From contig DASVOS010000009.1 in NCBI GenBank assembly GCA_036383255.1, positions 148,110 through 212,109 on the forward strand: a DNA stretch of 64,000 nt, read 5' to 3'. The position numbers and the translations under genes are program-made. Below, one piece after another: positions 58,066 to 64,000 of this stretch. The notes under the pieces were generated by a model. That model was not told where the DNA came from. It did no database searches and was given only the letters and a program-made list of their open reading frames with translations. Each line of letters opens with the position of its first letter. Within the stretch, counting starts at the first letter, position 1. Source of the DNA: Gammaproteobacteria bacterium. Lineage in GTDB: Bacteria; Pseudomonadota; Gammaproteobacteria; Natronospirales; REEB76.

Positions 58066-59148
58066 TCATTCCATGTGGTTGGCGCAGTGCGCCGCGAAGT
58101 CGAAGATGCCGTTGACCTGGCAGTCCATCACCGCCGGCGAGAACTGGCCGAACGCATCCAGGCAGGCGTTCTCCCAGAGGAGCCGCCGCGGGATTGTGAG
58201 AGAGGGATGATCCGTGTTGCGATGCAGGCAGGTGGTATAGGCGAAGCGGTAGCCCGCACCTGCCACGGAGCGCACCGCCAGGGCGTCGAAGCGTCCGTCC
58301 GGGTAAGCGAAGTGGCGCACCTCGGCGCCCAGGCGCCGCTCCAACTCGAGCCGCGATCCCTGCACCTCCTCCTTGATCTTCTCGGCCGACTCGTTGGTGA
58401 GAAGCGCGTGGCTGCGGGTATGTGAACCCACCTTGACGCCGGCCCGCTGCATCTCGATCAGCATGTCCCAGTCCATGGACACGTACCCGGCGCCCTCGCC
58501 TCCCGCGCCACCGAGCTTCTCCCGCAGGACTTTCATGAGGCGGATGAGCTGAGCCTGGGTCAGGGAGGCCAACAGCGCTCGGGTGGCGTGCAAGGGTTCA
58601 TCCAGCGCTCCAGCCACTCCCTGGATGCTGAAGGCGGTGATGCGGGCCTCGCCCAGGGACTGCACCAGCTCCTGGCGCGGCTCGCCCCAGGCCTTGAGCG
58701 CCCGCTTCATCAGGAGATAGAGCTCGTCATGGATCTGCAGCTCACCGGTGCCGACCAGGTCCGTGACCACGAACACTACCGCCGGGATGCCCTTGCGCTT
58801 TAGCAGCGGGAAGGCGTTCTCATACACGTCGCGGTAGCCGTCGTCGAACGTCACCACCGCCACCGGCTTGCCGGTAGGCTTGGCACCGTACAGCCAGGCG
58901 TCCATACCGTCCGGATCGGCGAACTCGAAACGCCGGCCGATCCAGTCGAGCTGCTTCTCCAGGGTGCTGGTGCTGATGAGCATGGGCGCGATGTAGCCAC
59001 GGGAATCGCGGTCGAAGTCCTCCACCACGCGGTGGTAACCGACCACCAGAGGCAAGGCGACCTTGCGGGAGCGCGCGCCGATGAGCGCGGTCACCCCGGT
59101 ACGCTGCAGCGTGGCCGCCGCAGCCGCCTTGACCATGTTACGGATCAT
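58066..59148 (-). CDS. Polysaccharide deacetylase (NodB/CE4 family)
   Basis: Start MIRNMV with [12 protein letters not shown]; VTFDDGYRD and GSHTRSH motifs. Confidence 0.8.
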   Translation of the reverse strand: MIRNMVKAAAAATLQRTGVTALIGARSRKVALPLVVGYHRVVEDFDRDSRGYIAPMLISTSTLEKQLDWIGRRFEFADPDGMDAWLYGAKPTGKPVAVVTFDDGYRDVYENAFPLLKRKGIPAVVFVVTDLVGTGELQIHDELYLLMKRALKAWGEPRQELVQSLGEARITAFSIQGVAGALDEPLHATRALLASLTQAQLIRLMKVLREKLGGAGGEGAGYVSMDWDMLIEMQRAGVKVGSHTRSHALLTNESAEKIKEEVQGSRLELERRLGAEVRHFAYPDGRFDALAVRSVAGAGYRFAYTTCLHRNTDHPSLTIPRRLLWENACLDAFGQFSPAVMDCQVNGIFDFAAHCANHME

Positions 59149-59173
59149 GTTCCTTCCTCCAGGACGGCAGTCA

Positions 59174-60676
59174 TCAGGCCCGCCGGTTGCCGCTCGTCCA
59201 GGCGGCGGGCAGTTGCAGGTATTGCAGAACGGTGCGGCGTTCGGCCCCACTCAGGGGGCCGAACCGCCACGTGAGCCCAACGTAGGAGACGGCGTATGCC
59301 GCCCCCAGGATCAAGAGCGAAGGCAACGGCGACAGCGCCAGCAGGGGCTTCAGTGCCAGGCACGGCGCCATGGAGGCGGCGACGATAGCGACGACGCGAC
59401 CCAGGTCCTTCCACGGCAGGAGGCTCGTGTAGCTGCAGCCCATCAGCTTCCTTATGCGCATCAGACCCACCGCTTTGGCGGTGAGGGTGGCCAGCAGCGT
59501 CACCAGCACCGCGCCCATGAGTCCGAAATGAGCCAGGAACGCGGTGATGGTGAGCGCCACCACGGCGAGGCGGATGACGTTGAGCAGGATCAGGAAGCGG
59601 GTGTCTGCATGCACACGCAGCACGCTGTCGGTCATGATGGCCATGAACAGCATGCTCAAGGTCCAGACCATGAACAGCGGCGCGGCGGCGGCGTAACTGG
59701 CGGTGAACAGCAGCACGATGAGCTTGTCAGCGCAGACCATGAGTCCGCCCACCAGGAACGCGAACACGAGGGTCAGCTTGCGGGTGGTATCCAGCCACAG
59801 CTCCAGGGCCGCGGCACGACGCCCATCCCGCAAGTCTTCGCTCATACGCACCATCATCACGCTACTCGTGGAAGTCATCATGAAATCCACCAGGGGCACC
59901 TGCAGGCAGCCCACTGAATACACCGCGAACACGGCAGCGTCGAAATGGTTGGAGACCACGTACATGTGCAGGTCCCGCTGCACCGCCTCTATACCCACCG
60001 CCAGGGCGAACGGCAGTGCATAGGCGAGCTGACGCTTCATCAGATTGGCGTCGAAGGCCGGCTGGCGCGGGAACTCGCGCCTTAGATACAGCGAGGCGGT
60101 GCAGAGCCTGAGCGCAGCAAAGGTGACCGCGCCGGCGAATACCGCCGCCAGGCTATGGAACAGTAGTCCCGGCAGCACAAACAGGCTCGCCCGAGCCAGG
60201 TCCGAGAGCGCGTAGGCGCCGAAGGCGAAGCCGTGATGCTTGCGGGTGATCATCACGATCTCGAACACCGCCGCCATCAGCATCAGCAGGAGGTAGATGC
60301 CCACCTGCGGGATATAGGCCGCGAGCGCCGGGTTGTGGAACCACGCGGCGATGGCGTGGGATCCGGCCCACAGCGCCATGAGGCACGCCAGCCCCGCCGC
60401 CCCCAGCGCCAACAGCGAGTTGGACACGTAGCGCCCGCGCGCCGTGGGATCCATGGGCAGGAAGTAATAGAGGCTTTCGGCCATGCCGAGCTGCGCGATG
60501 CCGTAGAGGGTGGTATAGATCAGGAACAGCTGCTTGTAGGTGCCGAACTCCGCCTGGTCGAAAAGGCGGACCAGCACCACCGGGATCGCGAAGGCGGCCA
60601 CGAAACCCAGCGCCCGCCCCGACATGAGCATGAAGGCGGGCTTGAACACCGAGCCGCCCGCCGTCGGGGGCGTCAT
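59174..60676 (-). CDS. Oligosaccharide flippase (Wzx/MOP superfamily)
   Basis: Start MTPPTAGG (ATGA overlap with upstream stop); 12 or more predicted TM helices, polysaccharide-biosynthesis-protein pattern. Confidence 0.8.
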   Translation of the reverse strand: MTPPTAGGSVFKPAFMLMSGRALGFVAAFAIPVVLVRLFDQAEFGTYKQLFLIYTTLYGIAQLGMAESLYYFLPMDPTARGRYVSNSLLALGAAGLACLMALWAGSHAIAAWFHNPALAAYIPQVGIYLLLMLMAAVFEIVMITRKHHGFAFGAYALSDLARASLFVLPGLLFHSLAAVFAGAVTFAALRLCTASLYLRREFPRQPAFDANLMKRQLAYALPFALAVGIEAVQRDLHMYVVSNHFDAAVFAVYSVGCLQVPLVDFMMTSTSSVMMVRMSEDLRDGRRAAALELWLDTTRKLTLVFAFLVGGLMVCADKLIVLLFTASYAAAAPLFMVWTLSMLFMAIMTDSVLRVHADTRFLILLNVIRLAVVALTITAFLAHFGLMGAVLVTLLATLTAKAVGLMRIRKLMGCSYTSLLPWKDLGRVVAIVAASMAPCLALKPLLALSPLPSLLILGAAYAVSYVGLTWRFGPLSGAERRTVLQYLQLPAAWTSGNRRA

Positions 60677-61881
60677 GCCTTGACCTCCTGCAGTGGCATC
60701 GGGCCGCGCCGCACCAGGCGCTTCAGGTTCTGCTTGAGATTCAGGGCACGGCGACACAGCGTGCCACGCACGCTCGGTGGGAAGCAGTGGACACGCACCA
60801 GGTCCCGACTGCTGCGGGTCCAAAGCGCCTTATAACTCTCGACGCCGTGCAGCATGTCGAATTCGGCCACGCCCTCGGCGATGGCCTCCTGTACGACCAA
60901 TGCGAGGGTCGATAGTCCGACGCTGTGGTCGTTGTAGGCAGGGTCGTAGCCGGCCTGGTAGTAATAGAAGGCATCGCCGTAACGGAACGAATAGGTGGAG
61001 GCCACTGCCGTGCCGTCCAGCCGCAGCACGTACAGCCGCAGCCAGCCCCGTTCCAGCGCCAGGCGGCTGAACTCGCGGTGGAAGGAAAGCACCGCGGGAC
61101 CGGTGAGAGCCGTGGAACGCTCGTCCCCCGACCAGCGCAACCGATGCAGTCCGAAGAACGTCTCGATGTCGTCCTGGCGCTCCGTCTCGGTGGCGCTGCG
61201 CCGGAACTCGACCGTGCGGAAATCCTCCGCCAGGAGCTTGAGTCTCCGGCGCACGTTACGCCGGTGCGCGCCGCTCACCCCCGCCATGTAGGACTGCCAG
61301 CTTTGGCCGGCGAGCGGAATATAGGGGCAGTTGTCGGTGATCTTCTGCTCCGCCTGCCACCCGGCTTGTCCGAGCAATGAGACCAGGGTGGCGATGCGGC
61401 GCGAAGCCGGCTTGACGCGGGACAACTCGATCACGAGTCCCCGTTCCTGCAGGTAATCCGCCAGGGCCTGCAGCACGCCCTGCTCCTCATGCGGCTGCAC
61501 GATGATATCTAGGTAGTCCGAGCCAACGTCCCCGCCGCCCATGAACTCCAGGGTCCGGAACGGCAGCAGCCGCTGCAGCTGCGGCGGCCTGAGCGCCAGC
61601 GGCGCTATGGCGAGCAGCTGGTCGCCGCGGCGCACCACCAGAAGGTGCAGGCGCCGGCCGGCCGAGAGGTGCTTCCACCAGGTGGCAAGCCATTCCCAGG
61701 TGAGGAACAGGCAGTCCGCCCCGCTATTGCGGAGCAGCGTGTCCCATTCGAAGCGCAGCAGTCCCAGCATGTCCGCGTCCTCCACGCGCTCCACCTTGAG
61801 CGCGGGTCGCTCGCCGTGGGCGTTGAGCTTGACGCGCGGCACAGTGCGGGTGATGGTCTGGGGGTAGGCTGTGTCTTCCAT
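60673..61881 (-). CDS. CelD/BcsL-like GNAT acyltransferase (Acetyltransf_6, FemAB-related fold)
   Basis: FEWDTLLRNSGADCLFLTWEWLATWWKHL...RLHLLVVRRGDQLLAIAPL and C-terminal FDMLHGVESYK pattern. Confidence 0.75.
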   Translation of the reverse strand: MEDTAYPQTITRTVPRVKLNAHGERPALKVERVEDADMLGLLRFEWDTLLRNSGADCLFLTWEWLATWWKHLSAGRRLHLLVVRRGDQLLAIAPLALRPPQLQRLLPFRTLEFMGGGDVGSDYLDIIVQPHEEQGVLQALADYLQERGLVIELSRVKPASRRIATLVSLLGQAGWQAEQKITDNCPYIPLAGQSWQSYMAGVSGAHRRNVRRRLKLLAEDFRTVEFRRSATETERQDDIETFFGLHRLRWSGDERSTALTGPAVLSFHREFSRLALERGWLRLYVLRLDGTAVASTYSFRYGDAFYYYQAGYDPAYNDHSVGLSTLALVVQEAIAEGVAEFDMLHGVESYKALWTRSSRDLVRVHCFPPSVRGTLCRRALNLKQNLKRLVRRGPMPLQEVKA

Positions 61882-61899
61882 GTGTCTCTCCCTCTGTCT

Positions 61900-62205
61900 C
61901 TAGGCGTGGCTCACGAGCGCCCGCTCGGGCGCAGCAAGACACGCAACGGCCATCGGGCTCAGGCGCGTGTGCGCGGCGACGAAGCGTACGATGCCGGCCA
62001 GTGAATGAAACGCATCCATGTCCATGCTCTCGAAGGTGAGGTCGAAGCCGAACTCCGCCTCGATGCTCAGCAGGAGGCCGGCGAACTCCAACGAATCCAT
62101 CAACCCGGATGCGAACAGGTCAGTATCCGGGGCCGGCGCGGGTTCGCCCAGCGCGTCCTCGAACAGCAGGTTGACCTTATGCAGCAGTGATTCTTGGGTG
62201 TACAT
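61900..62205 (-). CDS. Acyl/peptidyl carrier protein
   Basis: Start MYTQESLL (62203-62205); phosphopantetheine site LFASGLMDSLEF. Confidence 0.7.
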   Translation of the reverse strand: MYTQESLLHKVNLLFEDALGEPAPAPDTDLFASGLMDSLEFAGLLLSIEAEFGFDLTFESMDMDAFHSLAGIVRFVAAHTRLSPMAVACLAAPERALVSHA

Positions 62206-62713
62206 CGGGGCTCCTGTGCTCGCCGGCCTGCAGCTCGAACAACAGCCGGTCGAAGGGTTCGCCCTCCCCGTCCCGGCCATGGCGCTGGCGGCCGATGGGC
62301 CGGAAGTTGAGCTTCTTGAGGATGCGTAGCGAAGCCTGGTTGGACTCCAGTGCCCAGGCGTTCACGCACTCCAGGCCGTGCACGTCGAACCCCAAGGTCA
62401 GCATCGCGGAAGTGGAGCGGTACAAGTAGCCCTTGCCCGTATACCGTCGATCGCCGAGGAGCGCCCACAGCACCGCGGCGCGGAAATCCCGGTTCACACT
62501 GCTCAGCGCCACCAATCCGATCGGTCCGCCATCATCATCTGCTGTGAAGGCGCGGATGATGTGCGCGTCGTTCTTGGTCATGATCCTGAGCGCCATGGCG
62601 CCTATCGGCTTCTCGCCGCCGCCCAGGTCCAGCCACTTGCGGTTGTGCTTCTCGGAGAGCCAGCGGGCGCCCAGCTCTATCAGGGAATCGTCATCCAGGG
62701 GTATCAGTTCCAC
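62177..62713 (-). CDS. GNAT family N-acetyltransferase (RimJ/RimL-like)
   Basis: GTG start; LGDRRYTGKGY...NQASLRILKKLNFRPIG acetyl-CoA binding pattern. Confidence 0.75.
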   Translation of the reverse strand: MELIPLDDDSLIELGARWLSEKHNRKWLDLGGGEKPIGAMALRIMTKNDAHIIRAFTADDDGGPIGLVALSSVNRDFRAAVLWALLGDRRYTGKGYLYRSTSAMLTLGFDVHGLECVNAWALESNQASLRILKKLNFRPIGRQRHGRDGEGEPFDRLLFELQAGEHRSPDVHPRITAA

Positions 62714-64000
62714 CTTGCGTCCATGCCTTTATTAGCGTGCGCCCCGCAGCCGTGCCGGAGGCGTCTTGCGACAGTTCTCGCCACGCGCTCCAGTCGCCAT
62801 ACGGGGCGCGCTCCGCCGGCTCCATGCCAGCAGCGTAAGTCTTGATGGGGGAGATCGCCGTCGCCGTAGCCGAATAGAGCCGGCCATCCTGGCCCCGCCG
62901 CAGCCTCTCGCCGGTGCGGTATACGCGCCCTATCCTGTCTAAGCGCGGAAATGCGCTGGCACTGGCTTCGGACTCGCCCCAATAACCGGAACTCAGGCCC
63001 GGCCCTTTGATGTACAGGTCGCCGGTCTCGCCGGGGCGCACCTCCTGAAAGTTGTGGTCCAGCAGCAGGAGCTCGCCAGTACCGCAGGCGATACCGTAGG
63101 GCTGCGCCTCATCCGGCTCCGGAAAGGTGACCACGGTGTGGTAGCTGCCGGCGATCCCCGCCTCCACCGGGCCACGAAAGCCGGTGAACTCCACGTGTGG
63201 CAGGTGCCGCATCCAATAGTCGAGGGACCCTGTGGGCAGCGATTCGCCATGCCACTGCACTCGCCTCAGGTCCGGGAAGTCCCAAGGTCGCACCACGTCC
63301 AGGCGAGCCATGTGGTCCAGCACGTCCGTCAGCGAAGACCAGTGGGTGATACCGGAACTGCGCGTCCACTCCGCCAGGCGCTTGGGCAGGAGCGCATGCT
63401 CGGCCGGCACCAGGTGCAGCTCTGCGCCGGCGGCGAAGCTGCCGAAGCTGTCGTACAGCGAGAGCGGATGGGACAGTGGAGCGTGGCTGGCGAGCCGGTC
63501 TCCGGCGTCCAGGCGGAAGCGCCGCTGCGCCCACTCCACGAAGGAGATCACGTTGGCATGGGTGAGCGACACGCCATGGGGCGCATCGCCGCCGGTGAAG
63601 CGGATCTCCGCCGTATCCTGGGCGCGGTGAGCGCCCGCGAGCGGGGTACCGGGCAGTGCGCCGATGTCAGAGAAGCGGAAGCCCGCCGGCAACCCCTGCA
63701 GGTCCGCCGGGATCCCCAACCAGCCCAGGCGCAGGCTGGGGATGCCCGGATCGGCCAGGAGCTCTCGCACCAGCGGCGCCAGGCTTCCCGCCGCCAGCAA
63801 GCAGTGGCTGCCTACATGGCCCACGATGTGCGCCAAGGTGGCGGCGGAAGCGGACGGCTCCAGCGGCACATGGATGCAGTCAGCCTTGTAGATGCCGAGC
63901 TGGCACACCAGCGCCAGCGGCGACTTGGGGAGCAGTACACAGACCCGGTCACCACGGGCACAGCCCCGTTCCTTGAGGGCGCGGGCCAGCTGATTGGAGA
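62691..64000 (-). CDS. AMP-dependent synthetase/ligase (adenylating enzyme), partial: 5-prime end beyond window
   Basis: Frame stays open to nt 64000 (..NQLARALKERGCARGDRVCVLLPKSPLALVCQLGIYKA..); YRTGE and IK...EPAE core motifs. Confidence 0.85.
   Translation of the reverse strand, partial: SNQLARALKERGCARGDRVCVLLPKSPLALVCQLGIYKADCIHVPLEPSASAATLAHIVGHVGSHCLLAAGSLAPLVRELLADPGIPSLRLGWLGIPADLQGLPAGFRFSDIGALPGTPLAGAHRAQDTAEIRFTGGDAPHGVSLTHANVISFVEWAQRRFRLDAGDRLASHAPLSHPLSLYDSFGSFAAGAELHLVPAEHALLPKRLAEWTRSSGITHWSSLTDVLDHMARLDVVRPWDFPDLRRVQWHGESLPTGSLDYWMRHLPHVEFTGFRGPVEAGIAGSYHTVVTFPEPDEAQPYGIACGTGELLLLDHNFQEVRPGETGDLYIKGPGLSSGYWGESEASASAFPRLDRIGRVYRTGERLRRGQDGRLYSATATAISPIKTYAAGMEPAERAPYGDWSAWRELSQDASGTAAGRTLIKAWTQGGTDTPG

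Follow-up and report, generated by a model that had tools for sequence, protein, structure and literature searches.

Probable remnant of a glycan-decoration module with a putative adenylation-domain pseudoenzyme in a gammaproteobacterial exopolysaccharide locus

Comparison of a gammaproteobacterial exopolysaccharide (EPS) locus with its relatives indicates that three adjacent genes at the end of the analysed 64,000-nucleotide stretch of DNA (the window), encoding an ANL-family protein, a small GNAT and a carrier protein, are probably the remnant of a five-gene glycan-decoration module. The ANL protein has lost the motifs of adenylation chemistry together with most of its C-terminal subdomain. 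Because its core is still under purifying selection and shows new conserved positions, it most likely survives as a pseudoenzyme, a non-catalytic binding or scaffold partner of the overlapping small GNAT.

Organization of the cassette and its canonical relatives

The four genes that the initial annotation read as an ANL ligase, a RimL-like GNAT, a DSL-type carrier and a CelD/FemAB-like transferase are real open reading frames located where it placed them, all on the minus strand. The ANL gene (62,691 to 64,000) runs past the window edge; extension into the contig located its ATG at window-equivalent position 64,109, with the first 36 codons outside the window and a full product of 472 residues. 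The small GNAT gene (62,177 to 62,713; RimL/SpeG-like, 178 residues, PF13302 E=2e-10) starts with a GTG that overlaps the ANL stop by 23 nt, and the carrier ATG (61,900 to 62,205) overlaps the small GNAT stop by 29 nt. The 101-residue carrier contains the quoted DSL phosphopantetheine motif and matches PF00550 with 35.8 bits, above the cut-off of 20.8. The description of the genes as overlapping is accurate for these two junctions and fails at the third, where an 18-nt gap containing a ribosome-binding site separates the carrier from a 402-residue PF13480 (Acetyltransf_6; FemAB/CelD/BcsL-like) acyltransferase (60,673 to 61,881; E=8e-33, 114 bits where the cut-off is 22). Further along the same strand lie a MOP/Wzx-type flippase (59,174 to 60,676; weak MOP flippase match, conserved synteny), whose likely ATG at 60,676 overlaps the stop of the PF13480 gene, and a polysaccharide deacetylase (58,066 to 59,250; PF01522 E=5e-27).

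The cassette occupies the middle of a Wzx/Wzy-type EPS locus of about 25 genes, and it seemed to head an operon only because the window ends there. Upstream of the ANL gene, outside the window, are nine or more further co-oriented EPS genes, encoding an outer-membrane protein, an export protein, a chain-length determinant, a tyrosine kinase, a priming phosphotransferase, a CofD/YvcK-like protein, an NDP-sugar dehydrogenase, a Wzy_C-like protein and a GT4 glycosyltransferase.

A canonical form of the module, ordered as luciferase-like monooxygenase, ANL, small GNAT (in some loci), carrier and large GNAT, is present in the congener G001 and in metagenome-assembled genomes of many soil and groundwater phyla, including Rokubacteria, Acidobacteria, Nitrospirae, Eisenbacteria and Sulfurifustis, in which the module is uncharacterised. 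In its ANL protein, which adjoins the carrier, all core motifs are preserved, among them the Asp for alpha-amino group binding. The window remnant is orthologous to this module, with ANL cores that are 46-57% identical, and shares with it the small GNAT and the carrier. Both are placed between Wzy_C/GT4 on one side and the PF13480/deacetylase/flippase/AsnB block on the other. The window, in contrast, has neither monooxygenase nor large GNAT, and its ANL protein is without the catalytic motifs and the C-terminal lobe. The same division was observed across loci, to which a metagenome scan contributed four degenerate examples: the monooxygenase is found in 55 of 75 canonical and none of eight degenerate loci, and the large GNAT in 36/58 and 0/7, whereas the small GNAT (20/58 versus 7/7) and PF13480 (10/58 versus 7/7) show the reverse; the carrier is kept in 55/58 and 6/7. 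Two degenerate-type loci (G006/L059 and L063) have no carrier gene. The window genome is 100% complete, and a search of the rest of it revealed no paralogue that could replace the monooxygenase, large GNAT or canonical ANL protein of this family. We found no congener locus in which the remnant had been cleanly excised and the EPS locus kept, with G008 and G009 also lacking the PF13480 gene. Literature searches returned nothing directly relevant on a monooxygenase-ANL-carrier-GNAT module or on stand-alone ANL pseudoenzymes.

As judged from the canonical relatives, the ancestral stand-alone A-domain would have activated one small alpha-amino acid and loaded it onto the carrier, the loaded amino acid would have been tailored by the monooxygenase and, in loci that have it, by the small GNAT, and the large GNAT (about 370 residues) would have moved it to a sugar. 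The lineage of the window genome has lost both the monooxygenase gene and the large GNAT gene by deletion. The PF13480 gene travels with the deacetylase and the flippase and not with the module; it invariably precedes the block of flippase, deacetylase and AsnB genes, and the deacetylase adjoins the FemAB-like gene in all related loci. Within the order, as far as searched, each PF13480 gene was accompanied by the module in one form or another, and the argument that it is independent comes from the multi-phylum contigs. The PF13480 protein has no match to TIGR03019 at E<0.01 and no solved homologue by sequence; the single TIGR03019 match in the genome lies elsewhere and scores 21 bits against 260. 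We suggest that PF13480 is an N-acyltransferase forming part of the EPS locus backbone, with the deacetylase as its probable functional partner.

The initial annotation had proposed that the cassette activates an acid, loads it onto the carrier and transfers it to a glycan by means of the PF13480 enzyme. This logic fits the canonical module of G001 and the many metagenome-assembled genomes. It does not fit the window genome, because the ANL motifs and most of the C-terminal subdomain are lost, because deletion has removed the monooxygenase and large GNAT genes, for which no paralogue stands in, and because the usual transferase of the carrier is the large GNAT while PF13480 travels with the deacetylase and flippase. 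Automatic annotation names the window ANL protein "AMP-binding protein" or "NRPS component F", so a reader of the operon annotation alone would predict an aminoacylated or acylated EPS. Judged by sequence, that prediction appears to be wrong in this lineage and right in its close relative G001.

Catalytic motifs and C-terminal lobe of the ANL protein

The N-terminal (Acore) domain of the window ANL protein is intact (PF00501, E=2e-54), and the best Foldseek matches of the protein are A-domain core constructs with a TM-score of about 0.9. Motif losses were judged against LgrA, eight syntenic orthologues and 119 database homologues. The A3 P-loop, A4 Asp, A5 Thr, A7 Asp, A8 hinge and A10 Lys, all essentially invariant in 89 canonical homologues, are absent. 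The A3 loop (T-S-G-S-T-G-x-P-K-G) is two residues shorter and carries His in place of Lys, a Lys found in 88/89 canonical proteins and in 0/31 members of the degenerate clade; the A10 Lys is likewise found in none of the 31. At A7, which binds ribose, the protein reads YRTGE with Glu at the Asp position, and this position is D, H, E, S, L or A across the degenerate clade compared with Asp in 89/89 canonical proteins. The same Asp-to-Glu change abolished all detectable activity of acetyl-CoA synthetase (Acs) (PMC3438747). The A4 column (Asp235), which binds the alpha-amino group, holds Pro, and specificity-pocket columns that are invariant in the 89 canonical members drift within the degenerate clade. 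Ligand binding is possible, as the A5 glutamate survives along with much of the core.

The C-terminal subdomain has lost about 55 residues to deletion, leaving a tail of about 55 residues, and a profile search of the protein for PF13193 gave no match. On TIGR01733, the model for NRPS-type amino-acid A-domains, the protein scored 202 bits, under the 317-bit cut-off. In the AF2 model, pLDDT exceeds 90 at residues 1-416 and falls below 50 at residues 417-472, and the tail is predicted to be disordered. A frameshift or sequencing error was rejected as the source of the odd C-terminus, with no alternative frame encoding the missing motifs and the same state seen in independent assemblies. The deletions differ from species to species in the alignment of syntenic orthologues. 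We propose that the catalytic motifs were all lost in a single ancestral event and that the C-terminal lobe then eroded through independent deletions.

Assignment to the ANL family holds for homology and fold only. By its motifs the protein does not appear to be a working adenylating enzyme, and the term ligase does not extend to it. A non-canonical mechanism, in which the protein, perhaps by its core only, still adenylates and loads the carrier for transfer to a glycan by PF13480, would agree with the intact core fold, with the gene order and overlaps that suggest co-translation, with the conserved carrier serine and with the two phosphopantetheinyl transferases of the genome. We regard it as highly improbable: in each of the 31 clade members, every residue known to contact ATP phosphates, ribose and the alpha-amino group is altered and the A10 Lys is missing, the pocket positions drift inside the clade, the lobe required in both half-reactions is deleted or disordered, and one subclade has dropped the carrier.

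Selection on the remnant genes and their possible functions

The window ANL protein falls in a monophyletic clade of 31 degenerate proteins (sequence clusters; support 1.0), whose sister group is the canonical G001 type. Since their shared node, the degenerate clade has accumulated 0.87 substitutions per site versus 0.24 in the sister, a rate about 3.6 times faster. Mean pairwise identity is alike in the degenerate and canonical groups (0.68 versus 0.63). Sixty-five columns conserved only in canonical proteins are lost in the degenerate clade, and 40 columns are at least 95% conserved only within it, clustered at residues 104-162. The N-terminal domain of the degenerate clade is still under purifying selection: its dN/dS is 0.11 (CI 0.07-0.18) and 0.14 (0.09-0.18), values obtained by NG86, which saturates at dS>1 and leaves G000-G010 as the only clean pair (dS about 0.2). 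Adjacent genes give comparable values. For the tail, dN/dS is about 0.5, with a CI extending to 1, and a canonical control pair gives 0.05.

These patterns bear on whether the ANL protein and the carrier are functionless relics, their low dN/dS reflecting translational coupling, codon or GC constraint, or avoidance of polarity. The stepwise losses of the monooxygenase, the large GNAT, the C-terminal lobe and, in one subclade, the carrier agree with decay, as does the accelerated evolution of the clade. However, the 415-codon frame is open and alignable across species at dS>1, with no frameshift in the eight aligned DNA loci; the N-domain is constrained like neighbouring working genes while the tail is not to that degree; forty new invariant positions have arisen; and coupling would constrain the 3' end alone. 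Decay without function is therefore unlikely, and a pseudoenzyme is preferred.

The small GNAT shows the strongest conservation among the three remnant genes, with dN/dS of 0.02 (G000-G010) and 0.12 (G003-G014). Among solved structures it comes closest to SpeG spermidine acetyltransferases (E about 1e-4), and it probably acts straight from acyl-CoA. A tentative extension of the pseudoenzyme reading, to which we give somewhat less than even weight, is that the long-retained ANL protein serves as a specificity or scaffold subunit for this RimL-type GNAT in polysaccharide decoration through the new surface at about residues 104-162, the GNAT replacing the carrier route via acyl-CoA. A search for fusions of the ANL protein with the GNAT, or of other GNAT fusions, found none among longer proteins, which is weak evidence against the scaffold role.

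The DSL serine of the carrier, the site of phosphopantetheine attachment, is conserved in 9/9 orthologues, and its modification is possible given the two PF01648 phosphopantetheinyl transferases encoded in the genome. The carrier dN/dS is 0.14-0.30, no higher than in the canonical pair (0.19). Since the serine is kept and selection is not relaxed relative to that pair, the carrier may still be used in this genome, loaded by another route; loading by the ANL protein has probably ceased, and a sister subclade dispenses with the carrier altogether. One such route would be loading in trans, by another ANL enzyme or by a phosphopantetheinyl transferase from acyl-CoA, with the window ANL protein as a docking platform for the GNAT or PF13480. 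The genome holds four other PF00501 genes, one adjoining another PP-binding gene on contig C4, as well as an Sfp-type transferase; GNATs that depend on a carrier are known, SbzI with SbzG being one case (PMC11685415), and most degenerate loci (6/7) keep the carrier. Yet identity to the other ANL proteins is just 24-27% and these are encoded in unrelated surroundings, docking of carriers on A-domains normally requires the C-terminal lobe too, and the carrier-less subclade retains the ANL protein, the GNAT and PF13480, so we consider this arrangement rather improbable.

As a putative pseudoenzyme clade, these proteins represent a well-sampled enzyme-to-pseudoenzyme conversion in the ANL superfamily, spanning 31 sequence clusters that share a single origin and have one lobe decaying by degrees, and could show what an A-domain core does without chemistry. 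The window lineage and G001 also form a natural matched pair for the role of a widespread module in soil-bacterial exopolysaccharides.

Comparison with known systems

Many genes of the locus, including the chain-length determinant, the export protein, the GT stp2 protein and the AsnB-like amidotransferase, match NCBIfam families of the XrtA/PEP-CTERM system best, all under family cut-offs. TIGR03098, the acyl-CoA ligase of such loci, gives 101 versus 592 bits on the ANL protein. Membership in this system was rejected, as a search of the 100%-complete genome turned up no exosortase (no TIGR03109 match; PF09721 at 18 bits, under cut-off).

DltA and DltC act in the D-alanylation of teichoic acids, and AlmE, AlmF and AlmG add glycine to Vibrio lipid A. 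The window resembles both in pairing a stand-alone A-domain with a small carrier for decoration of a cell-envelope polymer, and differs in that its A-domain appears dead. The locus does not match the Dlt system itself: DltA scores 104 versus 560 bits and DltC 28 versus a 52-bit cut-off, the DltC-like matches of the carrier being weak, and a search of 19 locus genes for MBOAT/DltB and DltD domains, and of the locus for an LpxM-type transferase, found none. The Dlt comparison is thus an analogy only.

The PF13480/deacetylase pair can be set beside HfsK and HfsH by shared fold class only, and we take HfsK to carry PF13480. HfsK, a Fem-like GNAT N-acyltransferase in the Wzx/Wzy EPS pathway of the Caulobacter holdfast, is genetically coupled to the HfsH deacetylase and was proposed to acylate the amines that HfsH exposes (PMC5362036). 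By the same logic, PF13480 most likely works with the neighbouring deacetylase and re-acylates an amine that has been exposed on the lipid-linked repeat unit, ahead of flipping.

In the altemicidin pathway, an adenylate is passed to a stand-alone carrier and from there to an amine by a GNAT-fold transferase (PMC11685415), and the SbzG-SbzI fusion (8zt4) is a weak sequence match of the window carrier (E=0.006). The system belongs to secondary metabolism and not to glycan decoration, and the window ANL protein is predicted to be inactive. SbzI has a replaced CoA-binding loop, whereas the small GNAT of the window retains an R-x-x-G-x-G-like loop by its sequence (PMC11685415 for SbzI). It is the ancestral module that the SbzL (ANL), SbzG (carrier) and SbzI (carrier-dependent GNAT) logic fits (PMC11685415).

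Gene cassette within the EPS locus

The four consecutive minus-strand genes proposed in the initial annotation are borne out by the ORF listing and by Pfam and NCBIfam scans. Briefly, the AMP-binding protein (PF00501; named ANL*) extends from 62691 to beyond 64000 and starts at window-equivalent 64109 when the contig is read past the window edge. The window corresponds to G000:C9:148110-212109. It is followed by a GNAT (PF13302/PF00583; 62177-62713), a carrier identified with Pfam (PF00550; 61900-62205), in which the serine of the quoted DSL phosphopantetheine site is present, and a FemAB/CelD-like protein (Acetyltransf_6, PF13480; 60673-61881). Overlaps had been proposed throughout; they are found between ANL* and the GNAT (23 nt) and between the GNAT and the carrier (29 nt), but not between the carrier and PF13480 genes, where an 18-nt gap holds an RBS.

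The cassette does not form the head of the operon as had been suggested, and the EPS genes continue upstream of the window edge. The contig extension upstream of ANL* encodes, in order, a GT4, a Wzy_C-like protein, an NDP-sugar dehydrogenase, a CofD/YvcK-like protein and a priming phosphotransferase and, farther upstream, a tyrosine kinase, a chain-length determinant, an export protein and an outer-membrane protein. Downstream of the cassette, the Pfam and NCBIfam scans identified a MOP flippase, a polysaccharide deacetylase, an AsnB-like amidotransferase, a sulfotransferase and a GT4. With EPS genes on both sides, the cassette thus lies in the middle of the operon, within a large Wzx/Wzy-type EPS locus.

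The CofD/YvcK-family gene (UDP-GlcNAc-binding protein family; minus strand, locus L003:8112-9230, contig C9:216111-217229, beyond the window) is located between the priming phosphotransferase and the NDP-sugar dehydrogenase, a position kept in congeners. A second, divergent PF13480-like ORF (plus strand, L003:16198-17412, C9:224197-225411), found by tblastn only and sharing 26% identity with the window protein, sits directly upstream of the EPS operon, in divergent orientation. XrtA/PEP-CTERM-system families are the best matches of many locus genes, with every score below cut-off; no exosortase (TIGR03109, PF09721) was detectable in the 100%-complete genome (G000), and an exosortase system is not demonstrable.

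Catalytic motifs and C-terminal lobe of ANL*

Full-length ANL* matches PF00501 only, without the C-terminal domain PF13193, and none of the other frames encodes the missing part. In an alignment to LgrA, the A3 loop is missing two residues and has His in the Lys position, His-Pro stands in for the A4 Phe-Asp, and the A7 motif reads YRTGE. The C-terminal subdomain has lost around 55 residues, and no A10 lysine region can be recognised in it. Among the syntenic orthologues taken from nine related genomes, those of G001 (same genus), G038 and G026 carry textbook motifs throughout, whereas the degeneration is common to G000, G010, G011, G014, G003, G004 and G006 (a C-terminal fragment). The best 120 database homologues divide in the same way. 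In 89 of them, from many phyla, A3, A4, A5, A7, A8 and A10 are virtually invariant, as is the specificity pocket, which implies one conserved substrate; the other 31 homologue clusters lack the A3 and A10 lysines, and their A7 position varies and their pocket residues drift. An AlphaFold model of ANL* (115 sequences) shows pLDDT above 90 for residues 1-416 and below 50 for 417-472, and in structure it most closely resembles isolated A-domain cores. ANL enzymes depend on both the A3 loop and the A10 lysine. In acetyl-CoA synthetase, an A7 Asp-to-Glu change alone removes detectable activity (PMC3438747). Judged from its motifs, ANL* very probably performs no canonical adenylation.

Evolution of the degenerate clade

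All 31 degenerate proteins form one clade (support 1.0), whose sister is the canonical G001-type group; since the two diverged, the degenerate clade has evolved at about 3.6 times the rate of the other. A nested subclade retains a full-length but motif-less C-terminal lobe with Arg for the A10 Lys, and the C-terminal deletions vary by species; after a single inactivation event, the lobe has therefore decayed on several independent occasions. The core-domain dN/dS (NG86, with estimates saturated at dS > 1) is 0.11 between G000 and G010 (bootstrap CI 0.07-0.18) and 0.14 between G003 and G014 (0.09-0.18), within the range of neighbouring genes (0.02-0.16), while the ANL* tail reaches about 0.5 with intervals extending to 1. 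In a canonical control pair, the ANL has a dN/dS of 0.05 and its carrier one of 0.19. At comparable mean within-group identity (0.68 vs 0.63), 65 columns are conserved in canonical ANLs and lost in the degenerate clade, 63 are conserved in both groups, and 40 are conserved only in the degenerate clade, clustered at residues 104-162; the members of this clade are non-independent observations, and all relatives are MAGs of uncultured bacteria. The unpublished genome G020 was inspected but underlies none of the claims made here. Collectively, the core conservation pattern and dN/dS are the hallmark of a protein that has been maintained for a new function other than catalysis, and we consider ANL* probably a pseudoenzyme retained by selection rather than a pseudogene.

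Canonical module, reduced loci and proposed mechanism

We mapped 106 loci from species-representative genomes and metagenome contigs with tblastn. A luciferase-like monooxygenase lies immediately upstream of ANL in 55 of the 75 canonical loci with room and in 0/8 degenerate ones. Likewise, a large Acetyltransf_9-like GNAT occurs near ANL in 36/58 canonical loci (33/46 on either side) vs 0/7, a carrier in 55/58 vs 6/7, a small GNAT in 20/58 vs 7/7, and a PF13480 gene within 4.5 kb in 10/58 vs 7/7, the degenerate loci numbering only 7-8. The conserved and apparently uncharacterised module, which is inserted into EPS loci in MAGs from many soil and groundwater phyla (L014:7561-12127 in G001, L016:6093-11769 in G026, and L027-L139 generally), comprises an SsuD-like luciferase-like monooxygenase, a stand-alone A-domain, an optional small GNAT, a carrier and the large GNAT, with a DegT aminotransferase added in some canonical loci. 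In one canonical Deltaproteobacteria MAG (L033:3848-7289), two tandem ANL-homologous stretches follow the monooxygenase, an arrangement that may reflect either a duplication or a split gene.

In several phyla, the module occurs without any nearby PF13480 gene (e.g. L029, L030), which places PF13480 better in a PF13480-deacetylase-flippase-AsnB backbone block, and the large GNAT is more likely the cognate transferase of the carrier. In G006 (L059, G006:C264) and a metagenome contig (L063, 8406-10140), whose loci share 83% nucleotide identity, the carrier gene is absent entirely; ANL*, GNAT and PF13480 are kept, with PF13480 directly after the small GNAT.

No copy of the monooxygenase, large GNAT or DegT occurs elsewhere in the G000 genome, nor does a canonical ANL of this family. 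The genome encodes two phosphopantetheinyl transferases. At G000:C4:344695-359525, a separate cluster encodes an Sfp-type phosphopantetheinyl transferase alongside two PP-binding genes and an ANL-like gene with a partial match. This may represent an unrelated acyl-carrier pathway, by which loading of the window carrier in trans is conceivable.

The activate-load-transfer logic first proposed for the cassette would apply to the ancestral module; in G000, the route is broken by the ANL motif and gene losses. In the ancestral route, an alpha-amino acid would be activated by adenylation and passed to the carrier; after tailoring, the large GNAT would transfer it. The canonical Asp235 and the invariant pocket indicate an amino-acid substrate, perhaps a small residue as the pocket resembles such codes, which we take as a lead only. 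On the reading with most support for present G000, ANL* would be a non-catalytic partner, and we tentatively propose the overlapping small GNAT as its specific partner, a reading somewhat short of an even chance. This GNAT is invariably co-retained and highly constrained, with an R-x-x-G-x-G-like CoA-binding loop still visible in its sequence. On the same reading, the carrier would be vestigial or loaded via a different route, and the PF13480 enzyme would work with the deacetylase, following the transferase-deacetylase pairing proposed for HfsK/HfsH (PMC5362036).

The searchable literature yielded no account of either the canonical module or stand-alone ANL pseudoenzymes, which does not prove that none exists. 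The system bears on pseudoenzyme evolution, and the G000 and G001 types offer a natural on/off pair for resolving an uncharacterised EPS decoration. Despite the Dlt-type logic suggested initially, this is not a Dlt system, with equivalog scores far below cut-off. The likeness to known ANL-carrier-acyltransferase decorations is limited to the ancestral form of the G000 system, whose logic of adenylation, carrier loading and transfer parallels that of SbzL/SbzG/SbzI (PMC11685415).
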